Source: Escherichia coli
GTDB lineage: Bacteria > Pseudomonadota > Gammaproteobacteria > Enterobacterales > Enterobacteriaceae
Length of the DNA stretch: 64,000 nt
Strand: one strand, 5' to 3'
Assembly (NCBI RefSeq): GCF_036507355.1
Contig: NZ_AP027877.1
Part shown: positions 3,157 through 62,321 of the stretch, one piece after another
How the letters are laid out: each line of letters opens with the position of its first letter
How positions within the stretch are numbered: the stretch's first letter is position 1
Made by a program: the position numbers and the translations under genes
Notes under the pieces: model-generated
The model's input: only the letters and a program-made list of their open reading frames with translations
Database searches by the model: none
What the model was told of the DNA's origin: nothing

Positions 3157-4164
3157 CTATCCCAACAACTCTTCCTTAACATCCATCGCCAGCTCAAACG
3201 AATGCAGCCGCGCCTGGTGGTCGAAAATCTGCCCGTTGACCATAATCTCATCGGCGTCGGTTTCGCGCAGGATCGACTGCAAGCCATGACGCACTTTCGC
3301 TTTATCACCTACCAACGACATACTCAGCGCCTGCTGCACGCCATACTGCTCAGACGGTGACCAGAACTGATCCATATTTTGAATCGGCGGCGGCAGTTGC
3401 CCGGTTTCGCCACGGCGCAGCTTCACAAAGGCTTGCTGCATTGAGGTAAACAGAAATTCAGCGTCGCGGTTGCTGTCGGCAGCGATAATATTGATGCACA
3501 CCATCGCGTATGGTTTTTCCAGTCGTGCCGACGGTTTGAAGTTGCTGCGATAAAGATGCAGCGCCTGGAACAACATATCCGGCGCGAAGTGTGAGGCAAA
3601 CGCAAACGGCAGACCAAGCTGCGCCGCCAGTTGCGCGCTGTAAAGGCTGGAGCCTAACAACCACACGGGGATTTGCTCGCCGTAGCCTGGTACCGGGCGC
3701 ACATGCGGATTGGGATCGCGGGCGTCAAACCAGTCCACCAGCTCCGCGACATCGCGGGGGAAATTATCAATATCGCCGCTCATATGACGACGTAGCGCCA
3801 TCATTGTCCGTTGGTCACTACCCGGAGCACGACCCAGCCCCAAATCGATTCGCCCCGGATAGAGTGTATTGAGCGTGCCGAACTGTTCTGCAATGACCAA
3901 CGGTGAGTGGTTAGGCAACATCACGCCGCCAGACCCCAGATGCAGCGTGGTGGTATTCGCCGCCAGATAGCCAATCAATACCGACGTGGCAGCACTGGCA
4001 ATGCCAGTCATATTGTGGTGTTCTGCCAGCCAGTAGCGATGATAGCCGCGCTTTTCAGCCAGACGGGCGAGATCGAGAGAGTGGGAGAATGCTTCTCGCG
4101 CTGAAGAACCTTCGGGAATGGGGGCCAGATCGAGTAGCGAAAACGCAATGGTTTTATCAGTCAT
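3157..4164 (-). CDS. yhbW: Luciferase-like flavin-dependent monooxygenase YhbW
   Basis: 335-aa ORF; recognised as YhbW; synteny. Confidence 0.85.
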
Positions 4165-4167
4165 AAC

Positions 4168-4238
4168 AGCTCACTTTGTTACCGATTAATCTTTAATACT
4201 GCATTAAAGAGTAGTTAAAGTTGTTAACAAAGTGAGCT
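4168..4238. repeat. Nested perfect inverted repeat between ubiV and yhbW
   Basis: 14-bp perfect arms agctcactttgtta (4168..4181) and taacaaagtgagct (4225..4238), with an inner palindrome ctttaat...attaaag. Confidence 0.7.
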
Positions 4239-4244
4239 ATTTAC

Positions 4245-5123
4245 TTAGGCTTGCAGCTCCAGTCCTGCCAGCCGCCGCCAGTAGCCGTTACAGTCGCTGT
4301 TCGCCGTCAACGGCAGTGGTGCAGCGCCATTTTCATTAGCGCGGAAGGCGTCGAGCATCGCGAAAGTGTCAGTACCCTGCGGTGACAGGCGGACCAGATC
4401 GACCAGCCCCTGCATGGATGCCAGCTCGTTACCGAGGTTGTAAACGTAGCCGCTCATGGTCTGAATGCCATTGAGTACAAACACTTGTTGGTTTTCCTGC
4501 GACAGCACGTTGCGCCCGTTCGGATACTTAATGCAGCAGGTTTCACACTCATCTTTCGGGCGGTCTTCCGAACGCGCGGTAAAGCAGCGGGCGGAGTAGG
4601 CCAGCGGTAGATGACCGTAGCTCAGGACTTCCACTTCAAACTGGTTGCGAATGCCCAGCTCATCGCACTGATTAAGCAGATTCACCAGCCAGTCGCGGGA
4701 AAGCTCCACCGGCATACACCAGCGCATCATGCCCTGTTTGAGCAATATTTTCAGCGTCACCGCGTTATAGCAGTTCAGCGCGTGTCCGGCGACGAACGGC
4801 AGTTTGCGTTCAGCGCACATATTCACCACGCCGAGATCGCTGGCTTCAATCAGAAACTCACCGTTCTCAACATAGCGTTTCAGTTCGCCCAGTTCAGATG
4901 ATGCCTGCACCAGCGCCAGCGTGGAGAGCACTATCTGCTTACCACTTCCGGCGAGCGATTTTGCCATCTCCAGCCAGTCGCCAACTTTGGTTGCCCGGCG
5001 CTTGCTGCATACCGCTTCGCCAAGATAAATCACGTCGGCGCTGCTGGTGGCGGCCTGCTGATAAAAATCTTCCAGCGTCTCTTTTGGCCAGTACCACAGC
5101 ACTGGCCCTAAGGAATATTTCAT
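4245..5123 (-). CDS. ubiV: U32-family protein UbiV (YhbV), O2-independent ubiquinone biosynthesis
   Basis: ORF 4245..5141; start placed at the MKYSLGPVLWYWPKE methionine (292 aa); synteny with ubiU. Confidence 0.85.
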   Translation of the reverse strand: MKYSLGPVLWYWPKETLEDFYQQAATSSADVIYLGEAVCSKRRATKVGDWLEMAKSLAGSGKQIVLSTLALVQASSELGELKRYVENGEFLIEASDLGVVNMCAERKLPFVAGHALNCYNAVTLKILLKQGMMRWCMPVELSRDWLVNLLNQCDELGIRNQFEVEVLSYGHLPLAYSARCFTARSEDRPKDECETCCIKYPNGRNVLSQENQQVFVLNGIQTMSGYVYNLGNELASMQGLVDLVRLSPQGTDTFAMLDAFRANENGAAPLPLTANSDCNGYWRRLAGLELQA

Positions 5124-5131
5124 TGCTCTTC

Positions 5132-6127
5132 TCACTGCCATTTACGGTGATACGCGCCAAGGGTGGTTTGCGTGCCTTCGGACATCGACCCGAGCGTCTC
5201 CATCCACGCGCTTTGCGGTACGAAGTTTTGCGGATCGGCCTTACAACGGTCGATAGCCTGACGCCAGACTTTCGCCACCTGGCTGACATACGCCGGGCTA
5301 CGCTGGCGGCCTTCAATTTTCACCGAAGCGATATTCGACGCCATTAACTCCGGCAGCAGTTCCAGGGTATTGAGACTGGTGGGTTCTTCCAGCGCGTGAT
5401 AGCGCTCGCCGTCCACCAGATAACGCCCTTTACATAGCGTCGGATAACCTGCGTTTTCGCCGTCCTGATAACGGTCGATCAGCACTTCGTTCAGGCGGGA
5501 TTCCAGCCCCTGCGGCGTTTGTTGCCAGCGCACGAAACGGGCCGGAGAACACGCGCCTACGGTGTTGGGCGACTCACCCGTCAGATACGACGACAGATAG
5601 CAACGACCTTCCGACATAATGCACAGGCTGCCGAAAGCAAAGACTTCCAGTGGTACAGGTGTGACCCGTGCCAGTTGTTTCACCTGATGAATCGACAACA
5701 CGCGCGGCAGCACCACGCGAGCAACGTCAAAATGGCGATGATAAAAGTTAATCGCCTCTTCATTGGTCGCCGAAGCCTGCACTGACACATGACGCTCAAT
5801 ATGCGGGTAACGCTCGGCGGCGTACTCCAGCATGGCGAGGTCGGCGAGGATCAGCGCGTCGGCACCCAGCTGCGCCGCCATATCCACGGCGCGCTGCCAA
5901 CGGGCGTAACCGTCCGGATGCGCAAAAGTGTTAATCGCGATGTGAAGTTTGCGGCGATGTTGATGGACAAAACTCACCGCTTCCTGCAATTTTTTCTCGG
6001 TAAAGTTAAGGCCGGCGAAGTGACGGGCATTGGTATCATCTTTTAGCCCGATATAAACAGCATCTGCGCCGTTTTCGATGGCCGCCTTAAGCGCCGGGAG
6101 ATTTCCGGCAGGGCAGAGCAGCTCCAT
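5132..6127 (-). CDS. ubiU: U32-family protein UbiU (YhbU), O2-independent ubiquinone biosynthesis
   Basis: ORF 5132..6154; start placed at MELLCPAGNLPALK (331 aa). Confidence 0.85.
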   Translation of the reverse strand: MELLCPAGNLPALKAAIENGADAVYIGLKDDTNARHFAGLNFTEKKLQEAVSFVHQHRRKLHIAINTFAHPDGYARWQRAVDMAAQLGADALILADLAMLEYAAERYPHIERHVSVQASATNEEAINFYHRHFDVARVVLPRVLSIHQVKQLARVTPVPLEVFAFGSLCIMSEGRCYLSSYLTGESPNTVGACSPARFVRWQQTPQGLESRLNEVLIDRYQDGENAGYPTLCKGRYLVDGERYHALEEPTSLNTLELLPELMASNIASVKIEGRQRSPAYVSQVAKVWRQAIDRCKADPQNFVPQSAWMETLGSMSEGTQTTLGAYHRKWQ

Positions 6128-6335
6128 AATTTTTCCTGAAGGTTGCGCTATCAAAACGCAAAAATGTTAACGAACTGGGATTTTAGTTAACCTTGCTGCG
6201 ACAATTTTTGATTTAAGGCAGTTAAAGTTGTATTGGTGGTAGCAGCAATTTCATATGGAATTGTTGATTTATACCGCTATGTTATTTTTCTGATATGGCA
6301 AAATAGGATGATTGTTGAAACAGGGAGTAAAACTC

Positions 6336-6860
6336 GTGTTGGATAAACTGCGTTCCCGTATTGTGCATTTGGGGCCATCTCTGTTGAGTGTACCGGTAAA
6401 ACTGACGCCATTTGCGCTAAAACGCCAGGTTCTTGAGCAGGTCTTAAGCTGGCAATTCCGTCAGGCGCTGGATGATGGCGAGCTGGAGTTTCTTGAAGGT
6501 CGCTGGTTAAGTATTCATGTGCGTGATATTAACCTGCAATGGTTTACCTCGGTGGTGAATGGCAAACTGGTGGTCAGCCAGAACGCGCAAGCTGATGTGA
6601 GTTTTAGTGCCGACGCCAGCGATCTGCTGATGATTGCGGCGCGTAAACAAGATCCGGATACGCTCTTCTTCCAGCGTCGGCTGGTGATTGAAGGCGATAC
6701 GGAGCTGGGGCTGTATGTGAAAAACCTGATGGACGCCATTGAACTGGAGCAAATGCCGAAAGCCTTACGCATGATGCTGCTGCAACTGGCGGATTTTGTT
6801 GAGGCGGGAATGAAAACCGCGCCTGAAACCAAACAGACATCGGTAGGTGAACCATGCTAA
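6336..6860 (+). CDS. ubiT: SCP2-domain ubiquinone biosynthesis accessory factor UbiT (YhbT)
   Basis: ORF frame 6312..6860; probable GTG start at 6336 preceded by agggag RBS (6322..6327), giving MLDKLRSRIVHLG. Confidence 0.8.
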   Translation: MLDKLRSRIVHLGPSLLSVPVKLTPFALKRQVLEQVLSWQFRQALDDGELEFLEGRWLSIHVRDINLQWFTSVVNGKLVVSQNAQADVSFSADASDLLMIAARKQDPDTLFFQRRLVIEGDTELGLYVKNLMDAIELEQMPKALRMMLLQLADFVEAGMKTAPETKQTSVGEPC

Positions 6861-7357
6861 TTCGAGTAGAAATTCCCATTGATGCGCCGGGTATTGATGC
6901 CCTGCTGCGTCGTTCATTCGAAAGCGATGCGGAAGCGAAGCTGGTTCACGATCTGCGTGAAGATGGCTTTCTGACGCTGGGGCTGGTGGCGACAGATGAC
7001 GAAGGTCAGGTCATTGGCTATGTGGCATTTAGTCCGGTTGATGTGCAGGGCGAAGACCTGCAATGGGTCGGCATGGCACCGTTGGCGGTTGATGAAAAGT
7101 ACCGTGGACAGGGGCTGGCACGCCAACTGGTCTATGAAGGACTCGATTCGCTTAATGAGTTCGGCTATGCCGCAGTGGTGACGCTGGGCGATCCGGCGCT
7201 GTACAGTCGTTTCGGCTTTGAACTGGCGGCGCATCACGATCTGCGTTGCCGCTGGCCGGGCACTGAAAGCGCCTTCCAGGTACATCGTTTAGCGGATGAC
7301 GCGCTGAATGGCGTAACCGGTCTGGTTGAGTATCACGAGCATTTCAATCGCTTTTAA
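6854..7357 (+). CDS. yhbS: GNAT-family N-acetyltransferase YhbS
   Basis: 167-aa ORF; recognised as YhbS; start overlaps the ubiT stop (operon-like). Confidence 0.8.
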
Positions 7358-7646
7358 TCTCCGGGGTTTGCAGACTGCTTAACAGCTCTGAAAACCCTGC
7401 GCCTTCCGCTACCAGACGCTCTTTTTGCAGTTTGGTCAGTTGCTTAACGCGATATTCCGCCCGTAACGCCAGCGAACGATCGCCCACTGGCGCAGAAAAC
7501 GCCAGCGTCAGTTCTCCTTTCCCGCGCAGTGCTTTCGCCCCTTTGCCGCTTTGGTGCTGCTGATAGCGGCGTTCGACATCCGTGGTGATCCCGGTATAAA
7601 GCTTATTGTCGGCGGTACGGATCAAGTAAAGAAACCAGGGTGTCAT
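7344..7646 (-). CDS. yhbQ: GIY-YIG nuclease-family protein YhbQ
   Basis: 100-aa ORF; recognised as YhbQ. Confidence 0.8.
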
Positions 7647-35505: not shown

Positions 35506-36693
35506 CTATATTGCGTTTAAAAGGTCGTAATCATACGTATAGTCCTCTCTGGTAAAATATTGATTCTCTGAGTTATATGCTTCATATGTGTTATATTCCC
35601 CGACCTCAAAACCATTGTCCGGAGAATTTTCGTCTTTCTCGAGGGTGTTATCTGAAAGTAACTCTTCTGAGCTAGAGTCTTCTATGTTTAAATCCATAGT
35701 ATAATTAATTTGGGGAATGATCAGATAAGCATTTTCTTTGATATTTTCATAATCTTCAATGATTATGTCGATATAATCATGTGTTTTTTCTGATGAGAAA
35801 TCTATCATCTCTGGTAATTTAATTCTGTTCAAGCAATTGTTGATTTTCGATGAGCTTTTATATATTTCTTTTGTTAATTCATTTTCTAATTTATCTGTAA
35901 GAGTTGCTCTTGGTATAGATTTTATAATTGCAAATCTCATAATTTTTAATTGTTCTTCGGTAATGTCTCCAAGCTCATTCAAACAACTTTCGACAAACTT
36001 GATTTTTTCTTCAGAATACATATCGCTAATGCTTATTAAAACAGGCGTTATTTTTAGTAAATAATCCCAGGAGATTGTGGTGTTTTGTTTTGAACTAACG
36101 AAATTTACCTGAAACATGTTGGCATTAGTAAAATCTGTGTCATCCAATTTAAAAGGATTTAAAATTGCATTGGCCATATGTTTATCTGTAAAATCATAAA
36201 GTTCTAAATCGACATTACGTAAGTCCAGAGAGGATAGATCAACGATATCTCCAGTCCCACAACTAAAAATTACGTTTAACCTACTGATTTCATTGTAAAT
36301 ATCTTTTAATGGGCAATTAATATTGATATTGCCTGTGGATATTTCCTAGTTTTTTAACGGTTCATTAATGGTAAGTTCACAAGTATTGTCCGATCGTTGA
36401 ATAATTTGGGCGTTATAACCTAAAAAATCCAGACGAAGAGACGAGTCATTATAAAGAATTACATTTTGTAAGTACGCTAATTCTTTTTGAAAATCACCAG
36501 TGATAATGCATTTTCCACCAGGTTGTAACGTGTTAAGTAAAGTGACCATTTCAATAGAGGTCTGTTTTAGTTTTTCTATACCTGGTGCTAGTGCTTCGAG
36601 GTTATTTCCTGTTGGGCTTTCAGGAAGGTCATTCATTTTTCGACGGACTAAATCACTACTAATATCATTACCAATTGATGAAACAGGGAACAT
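35506..36693 (-). pseudogene. yhaC: yhaC, interrupted by a single in-frame amber codon
   Basis: 1188 bp equals 396 codons, the full YhaC length. One TAG (complement of 36346..36348) in ...EPLKN*EISTGN...; translation is otherwise continuous across the 115-aa and 223-aa ORFs, with no frameshift. Confidence 0.75.
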
Positions 36694-36714
36694 TATTTTA
36701 TCCTTTATAAATAA

Positions 36715-37254
36715 TCAATAAAAATCATTATTAAAATGATCGGGTGAAAAAAAGAGAATTTGCCAACAATCTGAAGTAATGCTGGTTTTATTAAAGTACG
36801 CAGGGGGTGTTAAGATGGCTTCTTTTCGGGTGAATTTTGCACAATACTTAGAAATCGTCTCCTTAATACATTCCAGCTCTTTTTTATTGACGGCTGAGCA
36901 AGTACATTTTTCGCCAAAAGGTGCAAAAGTGCCTACATCTAATGTTTGTATGATATAATCGTCATGTTCTCCTGTAGAAATATCTATGATGAATGGACTC
37001 ATATTTTCCGGTTGGATTCGGATCATGACAGAAGGAACATCGCCTTGATAGAAATTCAATGCAGTAATTGCAGATAATACTCTCCGCAGTTCATTACTTA
37101 TACTGTAAATTTTATTAACGTCATTGGTGGAGACAATTTCTGCAAACTTTCTTTTTACCGTCCAATAATCAATATTTCTATTGTGATTATTAACCACTGC
37201 GTGCATTGGTGGGATTGAAGGGTGAAAAATATGTGCAATTGGGAAGCCTTTCAT
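36715..37254 (-). CDS. yhaB: Uncharacterized protein YhaB
   Basis: ORF 36715..37284; start placed at MKGFPIAHIF (179 aa); AT-rich gene; synteny. Confidence 0.7.
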   Translation of the reverse strand: MKGFPIAHIFHPSIPPMHAVVNNHNRNIDYWTVKRKFAEIVSTNDVNKIYSISNELRRVLSAITALNFYQGDVPSVMIRIQPENMSPFIIDISTGEHDDYIIQTLDVGTFAPFGEKCTCSAVNKKELECIKETISKYCAKFTRKEAILTPPAYFNKTSITSDCWQILFFSPDHFNNDFY

Positions 37255-37509
37255 TGATGCCTGCCTTGTCATCATGACAAACAATAATAGATGCTTATTT
37301 TCCTCGCAGGGTTCTTTCGCACTATCAAAAAACGCTCATTTACCCGGCGTTACAGTAAACGAAGCAACATTCTGTGGCCTACGCCGATCAAAAGCTCTGT
37401 GAAAATTTCCCTTGTTGTCTTTGTCTGACCTTATCGCGGCGATCAGCAATTATTCGTTTTGTGATCCTCAACACAAAATGCTATTTGTCGCCTATGAGGG
37501 GAGAAGAAT

Positions 37510-37728
37510 TTATGGAAAACGATTGCATTCACAAAATGACGTCCTGTCAGAAGAGAAAAAGTTGACGTTAATCAATTGTTCGAGATGATCAATACCTGTA
37601 TTCGAAATTTTAAAATATTGATAAAATAAATGTTTGTTCTCCAACAAATAGCGTGAAAAAATGTGACGTGCCGCATTATTTATCGCTGAAAATGGTTTAT
37701 TTATAATAAAATTTGAGAACTTGCTCAT
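37510..37728 (-). CDS. tdcR: Threonine dehydratase operon activator protein TdcR (small ORF)
   Basis: ORF 37510..37866; 72-aa version placed at MSKFSNFIINK; divergent from tdcA. Confidence 0.55.
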   Translation of the reverse strand: MSKFSNFIINKPFSAINNAARHIFSRYLLENKHLFYQYFKISNTGIDHLEQLINVNFFSSDRTSFCECNRFP

Positions 37729-37963
37729 TAAATTTAACTCAAATTTTGCCTGGTAATTATCCGGTAATTGCTTGAAATATGGTCTCAGCCCCTTTTTTGT
37801 ATTAACCACATAACGAATGATGTTATCGCCATAAAATATGGTTATCCCCGTCATTTTTTTTGACAAAAATCAGGGTTTATGCTGATTTTTATACTTTAAC
37901 TTATTGATATTTAAAGGTATTTAATTGACATGACGATACCCTGGAAAGTATTGAAAGTTAATT

Positions 37964-37979
37964 TGTGAGTGGTCGCACA
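37964..37979 (+). promoter_or_regulatory. CRP-binding site in the tdc promoter region
   Basis: tgtgagtggtcgcaca matches TGTGA-N6-TCACA at 9 of 10 positions, 64 bp upstream of the tdcA ATG. Confidence 0.55.
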
Positions 37980-38042
37980 TATCCTGTTCATTTCATTTTG
38001 ATACACTTCATGCCGTCAATGAGGTAATTAACGTAGGTCGTT

Positions 38043-47097: not shown

Positions 47098-48429
47098 ATG
47101 GAAATTGCATCGAATAAAGGCGTCATTGCAGACGCTTCGACCCCGGCGGGTCGTGCTGGAATGAGTGAGAGCGAGTGGCGAGAAGCGATCAAATTCGACA
47201 GTACTGACACCGGCTGGGTGATTATGAGTATCGGGATGGCGATTGGCGCGGGGATTGTTTTTCTCCCGGTGCAGGTCGGTTTGATGGGATTGTGGGTATT
47301 TTTGCTCTCATCGGTGATTGGTTACCCGGCAATGTATCTGTTTCAGCGATTATTTATTAATACGCTGGCAGAATCACCAGAATGTAAAGATTACCCGAGC
47401 GTCATTAGCGGTTATTTAGGTAAAAACTGGGGCATCCTGTTAGGTGCACTCTATTTCGTAATGCTGGTGATTTGGATGTTCGTCTATTCCACCGCCATCA
47501 CCAACGATAGTGCTTCCTACCTGCATACCTTCGGCGTGACGGAAGGGTTGCTGTCAGACAGTCCCTTTTATGGTCTGGTACTGATTTGCATTCTGGTGGC
47601 GATCTCTTCACGCGGCGAGAAATTGTTATTCAAAATTTCGACTGGCATGGTGCTGACCAAGCTGCTGGTGGTCGCGGCGCTGGGCGTGTCGATGGTGGGA
47701 ATGTGGCATCTGTATAACGTCGGTTCGCTACCGCCGCTGGGGCTGCTGGTGAAAAACGCCATTATTACGCTGCCGTTTACCCTGACGTCGATTCTGTTTA
47801 TCCAGACGTTAAGCCCGATGGTGATCTCTTATCGCTCGCGGGAAAAATCAATTGAAGTAGCGCGGCATAAAGCATTGCGGGCAATGAATATCGCGTTTGG
47901 CATTTTGTTTGTCACCGTCTTTTTCTACGCCGTGTCGTTCACGCTGGCGATGGGGCATGACGAAGCGGTAAAAGCCTACGAGCAGAATATTTCCGCGCTG
48001 GCGATTGCCGCACAGTTTATTAGCGGTGACGGCGCAGCGTGGGTGAAAGTGGTCAGCGTCATTCTCAATATCTTTGCTGTCATGACTGCATTCTTTGGCG
48101 TCTATTTAGGCTTTCGCGAAGCAACGCAAGGGATCGTAATGAACATCCTGCGTCGCAAGATGCCTGCCGAGAAGATTAACGAAAATCTTGTTCAGCGCGG
48201 CATCATGATTTTCGCCATTTTGCTGGCCTGGAGCGCCATCGTACTGAACGCACCGGTGTTGAGCTTCACCTCTATCTGTAGCCCGATTTTCGGCATGGTA
48301 GGGTGCCTGATCCCGGCGTGGCTGGTTTACAAAGTACCGGCATTGCACAAATACAAAGGGATGTCTCTGTACCTGATTATCGTCACTGGTTTGTTGCTTT
48401 GTGTTTCTCCGTTCCTGGCATTTTCTTGA
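47098..48429 (+). CDS. cyuP: Cysteine/serine transporter CyuP (YhaO)
   Basis: 443-aa hydrophobic ORF; recognised as YhaO; paralogous to TdcC in this window. Confidence 0.85.
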   Translation: MEIASNKGVIADASTPAGRAGMSESEWREAIKFDSTDTGWVIMSIGMAIGAGIVFLPVQVGLMGLWVFLLSSVIGYPAMYLFQRLFINTLAESPECKDYPSVISGYLGKNWGILLGALYFVMLVIWMFVYSTAITNDSASYLHTFGVTEGLLSDSPFYGLVLICILVAISSRGEKLLFKISTGMVLTKLLVVAALGVSMVGMWHLYNVGSLPPLGLLVKNAIITLPFTLTSILFIQTLSPMVISYRSREKSIEVARHKALRAMNIAFGILFVTVFFYAVSFTLAMGHDEAVKAYEQNISALAIAAQFISGDGAAWVKVVSVILNIFAVMTAFFGVYLGFREATQGIVMNILRRKMPAEKINENLVQRGIMIFAILLAWSAIVLNAPVLSFTSICSPIFGMVGCLIPAWLVYKVPALHKYKGMSLYLIIVTGLLLCVSPFLAFS

Positions 48430-48456
48430 TTTACCTGAAATTTTAAGGTTTTTAAT

Positions 48457-60671: not shown

Positions 60672-60806
60672 CTTTAAAAGGTGAGAGCCATCACAAATGT
60701 GCGAATATTTGTAGGGACATTACCTGACGACAGCGAGGCCAGTACTGGCGCGGCCTGCAGCGAGATTTACCACTTTGAGAGTAATTTTTTTAACTACGTT
60801 TATTGA

Positions 60807-62321
<1,515 letters not shown>

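Follow-up and report, generated by a model that had tools for sequence, protein, structure and literature searches.

Positions 4245 to 6860 of the window, by which the whole 64,000-nucleotide stretch of DNA analysed here is meant, represent with a probability of about 95% the ubiUV/ubiT-hqbA divergon of E. coli for ubiquinone (UQ) synthesis without O2. DNA comparison showed 99.5% identity of this locus to E. coli chromosomes and a match in 5,424 of 5,426 genomes, and the RefSeq CDS coordinates are those of ubiV, ubiU and ubiT listed below, the GTG start of ubiT included. The locus, its control by FNR and the 174-aa UbiT are all already known from published work; there is little here that is new for biology, and the usefulness of the check is methodological.

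4245 to 5123, minus strand: ubiV (yhbV), RefSeq CDS, 292 aa, [4Fe-4S] protein of the U32 family, subunit of the O2-independent hydroxylase
5132 to 6127, minus strand: ubiU (yhbU), RefSeq CDS, 331 aa, U32-family [4Fe-4S] subunit
6336 to 6860, plus strand: ubiT (yhbT), RefSeq CDS, 174 aa with a GTG start, SCP2 lipid-binding accessory factor
6854 to 7357, plus strand: yhbS/hqbA, GNAT acetyltransferase binding Hfq, second gene in the ubiT operon

The earlier note on this DNA had recognised an O2-independent ubiquinone locus with ubiU and ubiV in tandem on the minus strand and ubiT divergent on the plus strand, and RefSeq, Pfam and NCBIfam all agree with it. Gene order and orientation are like those of K-12 ubiUV/ubiT (Pelosi 2019, PMC6747719; Arias-Cartin 2023, PMC10470549), as are the protein lengths of 292, 331 and 174 aa and the Fe-S cysteines (PMC6747719; PMC10470549) and also the 208-bp spacer, the letters of the FNR sites F1 and F2, the GTG start and the ubiT-yhbS operon (PMC10470549). 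The differences from K-12 are allelic only, and the control region has none at all (PMC6747719; PMC10470549). In ubiU and ubiV the DNA differs from that of most E. coli genomes by about 5%, and residue 65 of UbiT is N here and D in the common allele. The ATG of yhbS/hqbA and the stop of ubiT overlap by 7 nt, and hqbA was previously placed in the ubiT operon and found to be co-induced by FNR (PMC10710024).

UbiV and UbiU both matched Pfam PF01136 (E = 1.2e-9 and 2.3e-67, respectively) and scored above the cut-offs of their NCBIfam equivalogs, UbiV with 362.9 bits against 275 for NF047965 and UbiU with 559.3 bits against 440 for NF047963. All eight published Fe-S cysteine ligands are kept, being Cys39, 180, 193 and 197 in UbiV and Cys169, 176, 193 and 232 in UbiU (PMC6747719), and the ATG of ubiV at 5123 was present in all 76 loci in which the start was located. 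Residues 43 to 133 of UbiT matched Pfam SCP2 (E = 4.8e-20), and the protein, with 154.1 bits, exceeded the equivalog cut-off of 46.9 for NF047962 (SCP2_dom_UbiT). It is 99% identical to the published E. coli protein and, read from the GTG, has the published length of 174 aa (PMC6747719). Each of the three proteins passes its own equivalog cut-off and not those of its paralogues. UbiT has its SCP2 fold family in common with UbiJ, which serves aerobic UQ synthesis as an SCP2 accessory factor, but the two belong to distinct equivalog families. For UbiU the nearest NCBIfam paralogue family is TrhP, the U32 prephenate-dependent tRNA hydroxylase and a separate equivalog, against which UbiU stayed below threshold (165 bits, cut-off 534).

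The Pfam family is named Peptidase_U32 and the RefSeq product name of ubiV is 'U32 family peptidase', in accordance with which UbiU and UbiV would be collagenase-like proteases and not hydroxylases. This has next to no probability given the genetics and biochemistry, by which UQ synthesis needs UbiUV for its O2-independent hydroxylation and the two proteins bind [4Fe-4S] through the conserved cysteines found here (PMC6747719), given prephenate as the oxygen donor (PMC10990095), and given that the closest NCBIfam paralogue TrhP is itself a hydroxylase. As hydroxylase subunits known from the literature, UbiU and UbiV, each with its [4Fe-4S], would form a heterodimeric O2-independent enzyme. UbiT, published for the E. 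coli protein as required for anaerobic UQ synthesis and as binding lipid or UQ intermediates (PMC6747719), would replace UbiJ as the SCP2 lipid-binding accessory factor.

Three promoters, ubiUVp, ubiTp1 and ubiTp2, have been published for the spacer between ubiU and ubiT (PMC10470549). The transcription starts given here were worked out from the distances stated by Arias-Cartin 2023 (PMC10470549), with an uncertainty of about 1 nt.

6128 to 6335, no strand: divergent control region, 208 bp, 34% G+C against 51% for the window
6171 to 6173, minus strand: approximate ubiUVp start, placed from F1 lying 36 nt upstream (PMC10470549)
6180 to 6185, minus strand: likely ubiUVp -10, TAAAAT as read on this strand, within the conserved block GGGATTTTAgTTAACC
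6208 to 6221, no strand: FNR site F1, TTGATTTAAGGCAG, activates ubiUV, exact match to the published site (PMC10470549)
6244 to 6245, plus strand: approximate ubiTp1 start, constitutive distal promoter, placed from F2 lying 19 nt downstream (PMC10470549)
6264 to 6277, no strand: FNR site F2, TTGATTTATACCGC, activates ubiTp2, exact match to the published site (PMC10470549)
6299 to 6304, plus strand: likely ubiTp2 -10, CAAAAT, in the conserved block GATaTGGCAaAATA, fits the published start
6310 to 6311, plus strand: approximate ubiTp2 start, FNR-dependent proximal promoter, F2 33 nt upstream of +1 (PMC10470549)

The 208-bp AT-rich promoter region described in the earlier note was exact in length, and none of the 5,424 matching E. 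coli genomes falls below 99% identity in it. Across 80 Enterobacteriaceae species a footprint was seen in which F1, F2, the putative -10 blocks, the Shine-Dalgarno sequence and the GTG are conserved and the intervening sequence is variable. The reconstructed ubiUVp start agrees with the -10 element at 6180 to 6185. A sigma-70 consensus scan of 6050 to 6420, a method uninformative for activator-dependent promoters, returned a single promoter-like match, no better than chance, and recovered none of the published promoters. No terminator was found in the same interval, and an Rfam scan of 4000 to 7600 gave no known RNA element, with two sub-threshold chance matches, one to a CRISPR repeat and one to a miRNA. 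When the 5′ leaders from p1 and p2 were folded, the z-scores of -0.2 and +0.3 indicated neither a structured leader nor sequestration of the Shine-Dalgarno sequence.

In class II FNR-activated promoters the site is centred near -41.5 and has the consensus TTGAT-N4-ATCAA. F1 and F2 each consist of a perfect TTGAT half and a degenerate half (GGCAG in F1, ACCGC in F2) with three mismatches in five, and each thus differs from the consensus in three of ten positions; with fewer than three mismatches the consensus was absent from the spacer at 6128 to 6335. That the earlier note could identify no clear TTGAT-N4-ATCAA pair is right for the consensus, but two sites proven by mutagenesis lie in the region. 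The weight matrix scan that the note had proposed found F1 at 14.3 bits, which is above the median of the training sites (12.5), ranks third among 63,983 window positions, is the top site in the 64 kb outside the training set and was reached by 0.5% of shuffled spacers. F2 scored 3.1 bits, at rank 461, which is background, and 72% of shuffled spacers held two sites of at least this score. Matches to TTGATNNNNATCAA with three mismatches numbered 321 in the window versus 259 expected, modestly more than by chance. Among the species compared, the F1 pattern TTGATTT.AGGCAG was kept in 79 of 80, the exception being Intestinirhabdus L024 with TTGATTTAAACCAG, and the F2 pattern TTGAT.T...CC.C in all 80.

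F1 was predicted earlier from ChIP-chip (Grainger 2007), yhbUV was assigned to the FNR regulon by ChIP-seq and transcriptomics (Myers 2013), and the FNR peaks of both studies fall in the ubiU-ubiT spacer. The function of both sites was established by mutating them in reporter fusions as well as in the chromosome (Arias-Cartin 2023, PMC10470549). A five-nucleotide mutation of F1 abolished UbiV production and left ubiT unaffected, and mutation of F2 abolished the anaerobic induction of UbiT and left ubiUV unaffected (PMC10470549). Independently, the induction of UbiT was confirmed to depend on Fnr and not on ArcA (PMC10710024). The earlier note had named a demonstrated FNR site as what would contradict its negative scan, and F1 and F2 are published as such sites, which overturns the scan. 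Since F2 is at background by sequence, its role rests on the published mutagenesis together with its conservation.

Were ubiUV and ubiT without direct FNR control, the TTGAT halves would be chance occurrences in AT-rich DNA and the anaerobic induction indirect. The lack of a full palindrome would fit this, as would a mismatch count that both sites share with chance matches in the window, the background score of F2 and the failure of a simple sigma-70 scan to find the published promoters. The gene-specific effects of the F1 and F2 mutations refute it, however, and the ChIP-chip and ChIP-seq peaks, the rank of F1, the near-complete conservation of both sites and the Fnr-dependent, ArcA-independent induction also speak against it, which makes indirect control extremely unlikely. 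With respect to direct control by FNR, the check shows that a consensus-palindrome search overlooks functional FNR sites built of a perfect and a degenerate half; F1 was recovered by the weight matrix, F2 only by conservation or experiment.

From the reconstructed starts and the conserved -10-like hexamers, the centre of F1 lies about 41.5 to 43.5 bp from the ubiUVp start and that of F2 at about -39.5 to -41.5 relative to the ubiTp2 start, from which we infer class II geometry for both. The perfect TTGAT half and FNR-dependent activation are common to class II promoters and these two, as would be the distance of about 40 to 43 bp that the published spacings give between site and start, whereas the second half is degenerate here and yet conserved in its degenerate form across 80 species. 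Published work supplies the biochemistry, the transcription starts and the dependence on FNR; on this basis, FNR bound at F1 (6208 to 6221) would activate ubiUV leftward with class II-like spacing, and FNR bound at F2 (6264 to 6277) would activate the proximal ubiT promoter p2 rightward with a spacing similar to that of F1. The distal promoter p1 would provide basal, FNR-independent expression of ubiT.

The start codon of ubiT has been given in two ways, and the following features bear on it.

6312 to 6314, plus strand: in-frame upstream TTG opening the longest ORF (182 aa), rejected as start codon
6322 to 6327, plus strand: Shine-Dalgarno sequence AGGGAG, 8 nt 5′ of the GTG at 6336 to 6338

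Sequence comparison supports translation of ubiT from GTG 6336 behind AGGGAG, which would give the 174-aa protein. The GTG was kept in 81 of 81 related Enterobacteriaceae loci examined, and in the Shine-Dalgarno sequence the GGAG core was invariant across distinct sequences and GGGAG was present in most species. The scope of this conservation is the Enterobacteriaceae, the best 120 protein homologues being close relatives only. The preference of the earlier note for GTG 6336 with an agggag ribosome binding site is thus shared by RefSeq and all 81 loci. It was also correct that the ORF track overextends the gene, from 6312 to give 182 aa, but the upstream codon is TTG and not ATG as the note had it.

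Initiation at the in-frame TTG at 6312 or 6315 would give a protein of 181 to 182 aa, as some older database entries have it. The frame is open from 6312, a deposited 182-aa form (MLKQGVKL-VLDKL...) represents a cluster of 114 sequences, AGGA at 6305 to 6308 sits 6 nt 5′ of TTG 6315, and where the window has TTG 6315 a few Citrobacter loci read ATG in frame. Of the 80 species, most nevertheless lack the TTG, several have an in-frame stop 15 to 21 nt 5′ of the GTG, and the frame of the stretch is broken by 1-nt indels, as opposed to a GTG and Shine-Dalgarno sequence retained throughout. The published ubiTp2 +1 (about 6310 to 6311) lies 1 to 2 nt from TTG 6312, which would leave a transcript without a leader and thereby appears to exclude this codon, and 174 aa is the length used by RefSeq and by the experimental papers. 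A TTG start is accordingly very unlikely, and the ambiguity between 182 and 174 aa that persists in some database entries is settled by the comparative data in favour of GTG 6336. TTG 6312 was rejected for its lack of conservation and for the in-frame stops and frame-breaking indels of other species. ATG 6308 to 6310, the sole ATG close by, was likewise rejected as a start or as an upstream ORF, being out of frame, 5′ of the p2 start and not conserved.

Between F1 and F2 lies a further element.

6232 to 6249, no strand: palindrome remnant ATTGGTGGTAGCAGCAAT, right arm lost; in other genera a PdhR-type box ATTG(A/G)T-N3-ACCAAT

Most Enterobacteriaceae have the palindrome, among them Salmonella, Citrobacter, Klebsiella, Enterobacter and others. 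It was tried as a third FNR site and rejected, the half-sites being spaced by N3 and not N4 and the right half CCAAT being unlike ATCAA. A rather doubtful reading of the letters is that most of the family may carry a PdhR/FadR-subfamily-type operator, ATTG(A/G)T-N3-ACCAAT(AAT), at the position of p1 in E. coli, and that Escherichia may have lost it. The consensus of the PdhR box is (A)ATTGGTnnnACCAAT(T) (PMC7660256), from which the sequence between F1 and F2 differs by zero to one mismatches in Salmonella, Citrobacter and many other genera, whereas every Escherichia locus examined, the window included, has three mismatches and lacks the right arm. Here 6232 to 6246 has three mismatches to ATTGGTNNNACCAAT and no right arm, and does not qualify as a PdhR operator; the palindrome with the PdhR core is confined to the Salmonella and Citrobacter relatives. 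The left arm in most genera is also GAT and not the GGT of the PdhR core GGTnnnACC, and the K-12 gSELEX study used for comparison contains neither a yhb* target nor a target in the ubiU-ubiT region. Should a repressor in fact act at the element, expression of ubiT and possibly of ubiUV would follow pyruvate or carbon status in the other genera, and the 'constitutive' aerobic expression of ubiT in E. coli would be a lineage-specific derepression. Of the leads found here, the element alone might extend the knowledge of how anaerobic ubiquinone synthesis is regulated. The right arm would have been lost in Escherichia by a deletion of approximately 12 bp.

The gene layout described in the earlier note, a tandem minus-strand pair with ubiT divergent across a 208-bp AT-rich spacer, was borne out by the sequence, the ORF list and the RefSeq annotation.

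Features of the ubiUV/ubiT locus and FNR-matrix matches in the window
4245-5123, minus strand: ubiV (ORF list and RefSeq CDS, identical coordinates)
5132-6127, minus strand: ubiU (ORF list and RefSeq CDS, identical coordinates; ATG at 6127)
6128-6335: ubiU-ubiT spacer, 208 bp, from the ubiU ATG (6127) to GTG 6336
6185-6180, minus strand: -10-like hexamer TAAAAT, conserved, fits the published start
6208-6221: F1, verbatim match to the published FNR site
6264-6277: F2, verbatim match to the published FNR site
6299-6304, plus strand: -10-like hexamer CAAAAT, conserved, fits the published start
6336-6860, plus strand: ubiT (RefSeq CDS, GTG start; maximal ORF 6312-6860)
6854-6860, plus strand: overlap of the yhbS/hqbA ATG with the ubiT stop (RefSeq CDS)
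37560-37577 (yhaB) and 60801-60818 (uxaC/exuT): top two FNR-matrix matches, both in Grainger's ChIP-chip table

The spacer has a G+C content of 34% versus 51% for the whole window. UbiT matched Pfam SCP2 and its NCBIfam equivalog at 154 bits (cut-off 46.9), and both UbiU and UbiV matched Pfam Peptidase_U32 and their equivalogs at 559 bits (cut-off 440) and 363 bits (cut-off 275), respectively. All eight cysteines published as ligands of two [4Fe-4S] clusters in UbiU/UbiV (Pelosi et al. 2019) were found, namely C169, C176, C193 and C232 in UbiU and C39, C180, C193 and C197 in UbiV. The oxygen donor for the UbiUV reaction is prephenate (PMC10990095). Of 5,426 complete E. coli genomes, 5,424 match a 2.6-kb segment of the locus, mostly ubiU and ubiV coding DNA, the closest at 99.5% identity. 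This is a textbook locus that had been fully described before. Residue 65 of UbiT (6528-6530) is Asn (RDINLQW) in the window and Asp (RDIDLQW) in all three retrieved E. coli UbiT forms, the largest cluster included.

The ubiT start was compared in orthologous loci of 80 Enterobacteriaceae species and one E. coli chromosome (81 loci). A GTG is aligned to 6336 in every one of them and is also the RefSeq start, as had been proposed. The proposed agggag ribosome-binding site was likewise found, as AGGGAG at 6322-6327, 8 nt 5′ of the GTG; the GGAG core of this Shine-Dalgarno sequence is invariant in all 81 loci and most species have (A/T)GGGAGTAAAGCTC. The rival start "ATG 6312" was a misreading, the in-frame codon there being TTG, and the neighbouring ATG at 6308-6310 is in a different reading frame from ubiT. 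Among the 81 loci, Escherichia, Salmonella and some Citrobacter alone have a TTG in frame where 6312 or 6315 aligns; in several species a stop in the ubiT frame lies just 15-21 nt 5′ of the GTG, and the alignment of the stretch upstream of the GTG contains frame-breaking 1-nt indels. Distances in Arias-Cartin et al. put the start of the FNR-dependent proximal promoter ubiTp2 at about 6310-6311, so that TTG 6312 would be leaderless on this transcript. Over-extension of the ORF was confirmed, the maximal ORF from 6312 giving the same form as the 182-aa protein with the N-terminus MLKQGVKL that persists in older deposits (P0056); E. coli UbiT has 174 aa (Pelosi et al. 2019). Comparative evidence settles the predicted ubiT start at GTG 6336.

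In ubiV a second in-frame ATG lies upstream at 5141 (MAVRRAM-KYSL), within the last ubiU codons (region 5124-5141), and is kept in most species, probably because it is within ubiU coding sequence (AAATGGCAGTGA). The RefSeq start, ATG 5123, is conserved in 76 of 76 loci with a start found. At the other end of the locus, the 7-nt overlap (ATGCTAA) between the ubiT stop codon and the yhbS/hqbA ATG suggests that the two genes may be translationally coupled. HqbA is a recently described Hfq-binding acetyltransferase, and FNR co-induces hqbA and ubiT (PMC10710024).

The earlier note had found no FNR half-site pair in the spacer, and TTGAT-N4-ATCAA with fewer than three mismatches is indeed absent from 6128-6335, but published experiments refute that conclusion, as does a matrix scan in the case of F1. 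Grainger et al. (2007) reported a ChIP-chip peak for FNR at yhbT/yhbU with the predicted site TTTAACTGCCTTAAATCAAAAATT, which is the F1 region in reverse complement, and Myers et al. (2013) listed yhbUV among FNR-bound, FNR-activated targets. F1 (TTGATTTAAGGCAG) and F2 (TTGATTTATACCGC) were both defined by Arias-Cartin et al. (2023), in whose work F1 mutations abolished UbiV production, F2 mutations abolished anaerobic UbiT induction and left basal UbiT unchanged, and neither affected the other gene. In a second, independent study, induction of UbiT and the downstream HqbA/YhbS was Fnr-dependent and ArcA-independent (PMC10710024). FNR is thereby well established as a regulator of the locus.

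The position-weight-matrix scan that the note had called for was run over the whole window with a matrix built from 30 motif instances in Grainger's table, the yhbT/yhbU site being left out. F1 scored 14.3 bits against a training-site median of 12.5 bits, ranked third of 63,983 window positions and was equalled or exceeded by only 0.5% of shuffled spacers. F2, at 3.1 bits and rank 461, did not stand out from background. The matrix therefore finds F1, and F2 is not findable from sequence alone. The two matches above F1, at yhaB and uxaC/exuT, both belong to the training set, and the results show at least three FNR ChIP targets within the window. The fourth-best match, TCTTGATTTACCTGAAAT (48424-48441, 14.2 bits), is in the region of cyuP/cyuA (anaerobic cysteine desulfidase).

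All 80 species share the conserved blocks in which F1 and F2 lie. Conservation extends to the 'degenerate' halves (GGCAG in F1, CCGC in F2), with variation only in the F1 half of one species, Intestinirhabdus (L024). Judged by the -10-like hexamers, both sites would lie about 40-43 bp from their transcription starts, a class II-like spacing. None of the 5,424 matching E. coli genomes falls below 99% identity in the spacer, and 4,586 of them are only 95-99% identical over the 2.6-kb segment. Compared with L005, a divergent genome deposited under the name E. coli, the window differs by 6.7% in ubiV, by 5.0% in ubiU and by 0.5% in the spacer. Its ubiUV allele is a minority one and stands beside an invariant control region. 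An Rfam scan of the locus gave no family at or close to threshold, folding of both 5′ leaders gave no significant structure, and a sigma-70 consensus scan was uninformative.

Between F1 and F2 a palindrome, ATTG(A/G)T-N3-ACCAAT followed by AAT, is conserved in all 76 non-Escherichia loci (L006-L081), beginning 24 nt past the F1 start. The PdhR box ATTGGTnnnACCAAT is matched perfectly in 13 loci, Salmonella and Citrobacter among them, and with one mismatch in 25 more, and all 38 matches with at most one mismatch in 512 kb of fetched loci fall in the ubiU-ubiT spacer. The GGT core is reported as necessary for tight PdhR binding, but the left arm reads GAT in most genera, which makes the regulator of the palindrome uncertain. 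The source of the consensus (PMC7660256) lists no yhb* target and none in this K-12 region, and no literature link of PdhR to ubiT or ubiUV was found. In Escherichia, including the window (remnant 6232-6249), the right arm has been lost together with some 12 nt by deletion, and the spacer is 12 nt shorter. A ChIP-exo peak for YbcM, a prophage-encoded AraC-type regulator, has been reported in the same spacer in K-12 (PMC8464067). The palindrome and the YbcM peak are leads and not findings about the window.

Elsewhere, the stretch 36001-38000, which contains the yhaB FNR site, has a low G+C content (34% versus about 51% for the window). Here the reference strain PapM-32-1 is longer than the window by about 4 kb, and the aga/gar region is therefore not collinear.
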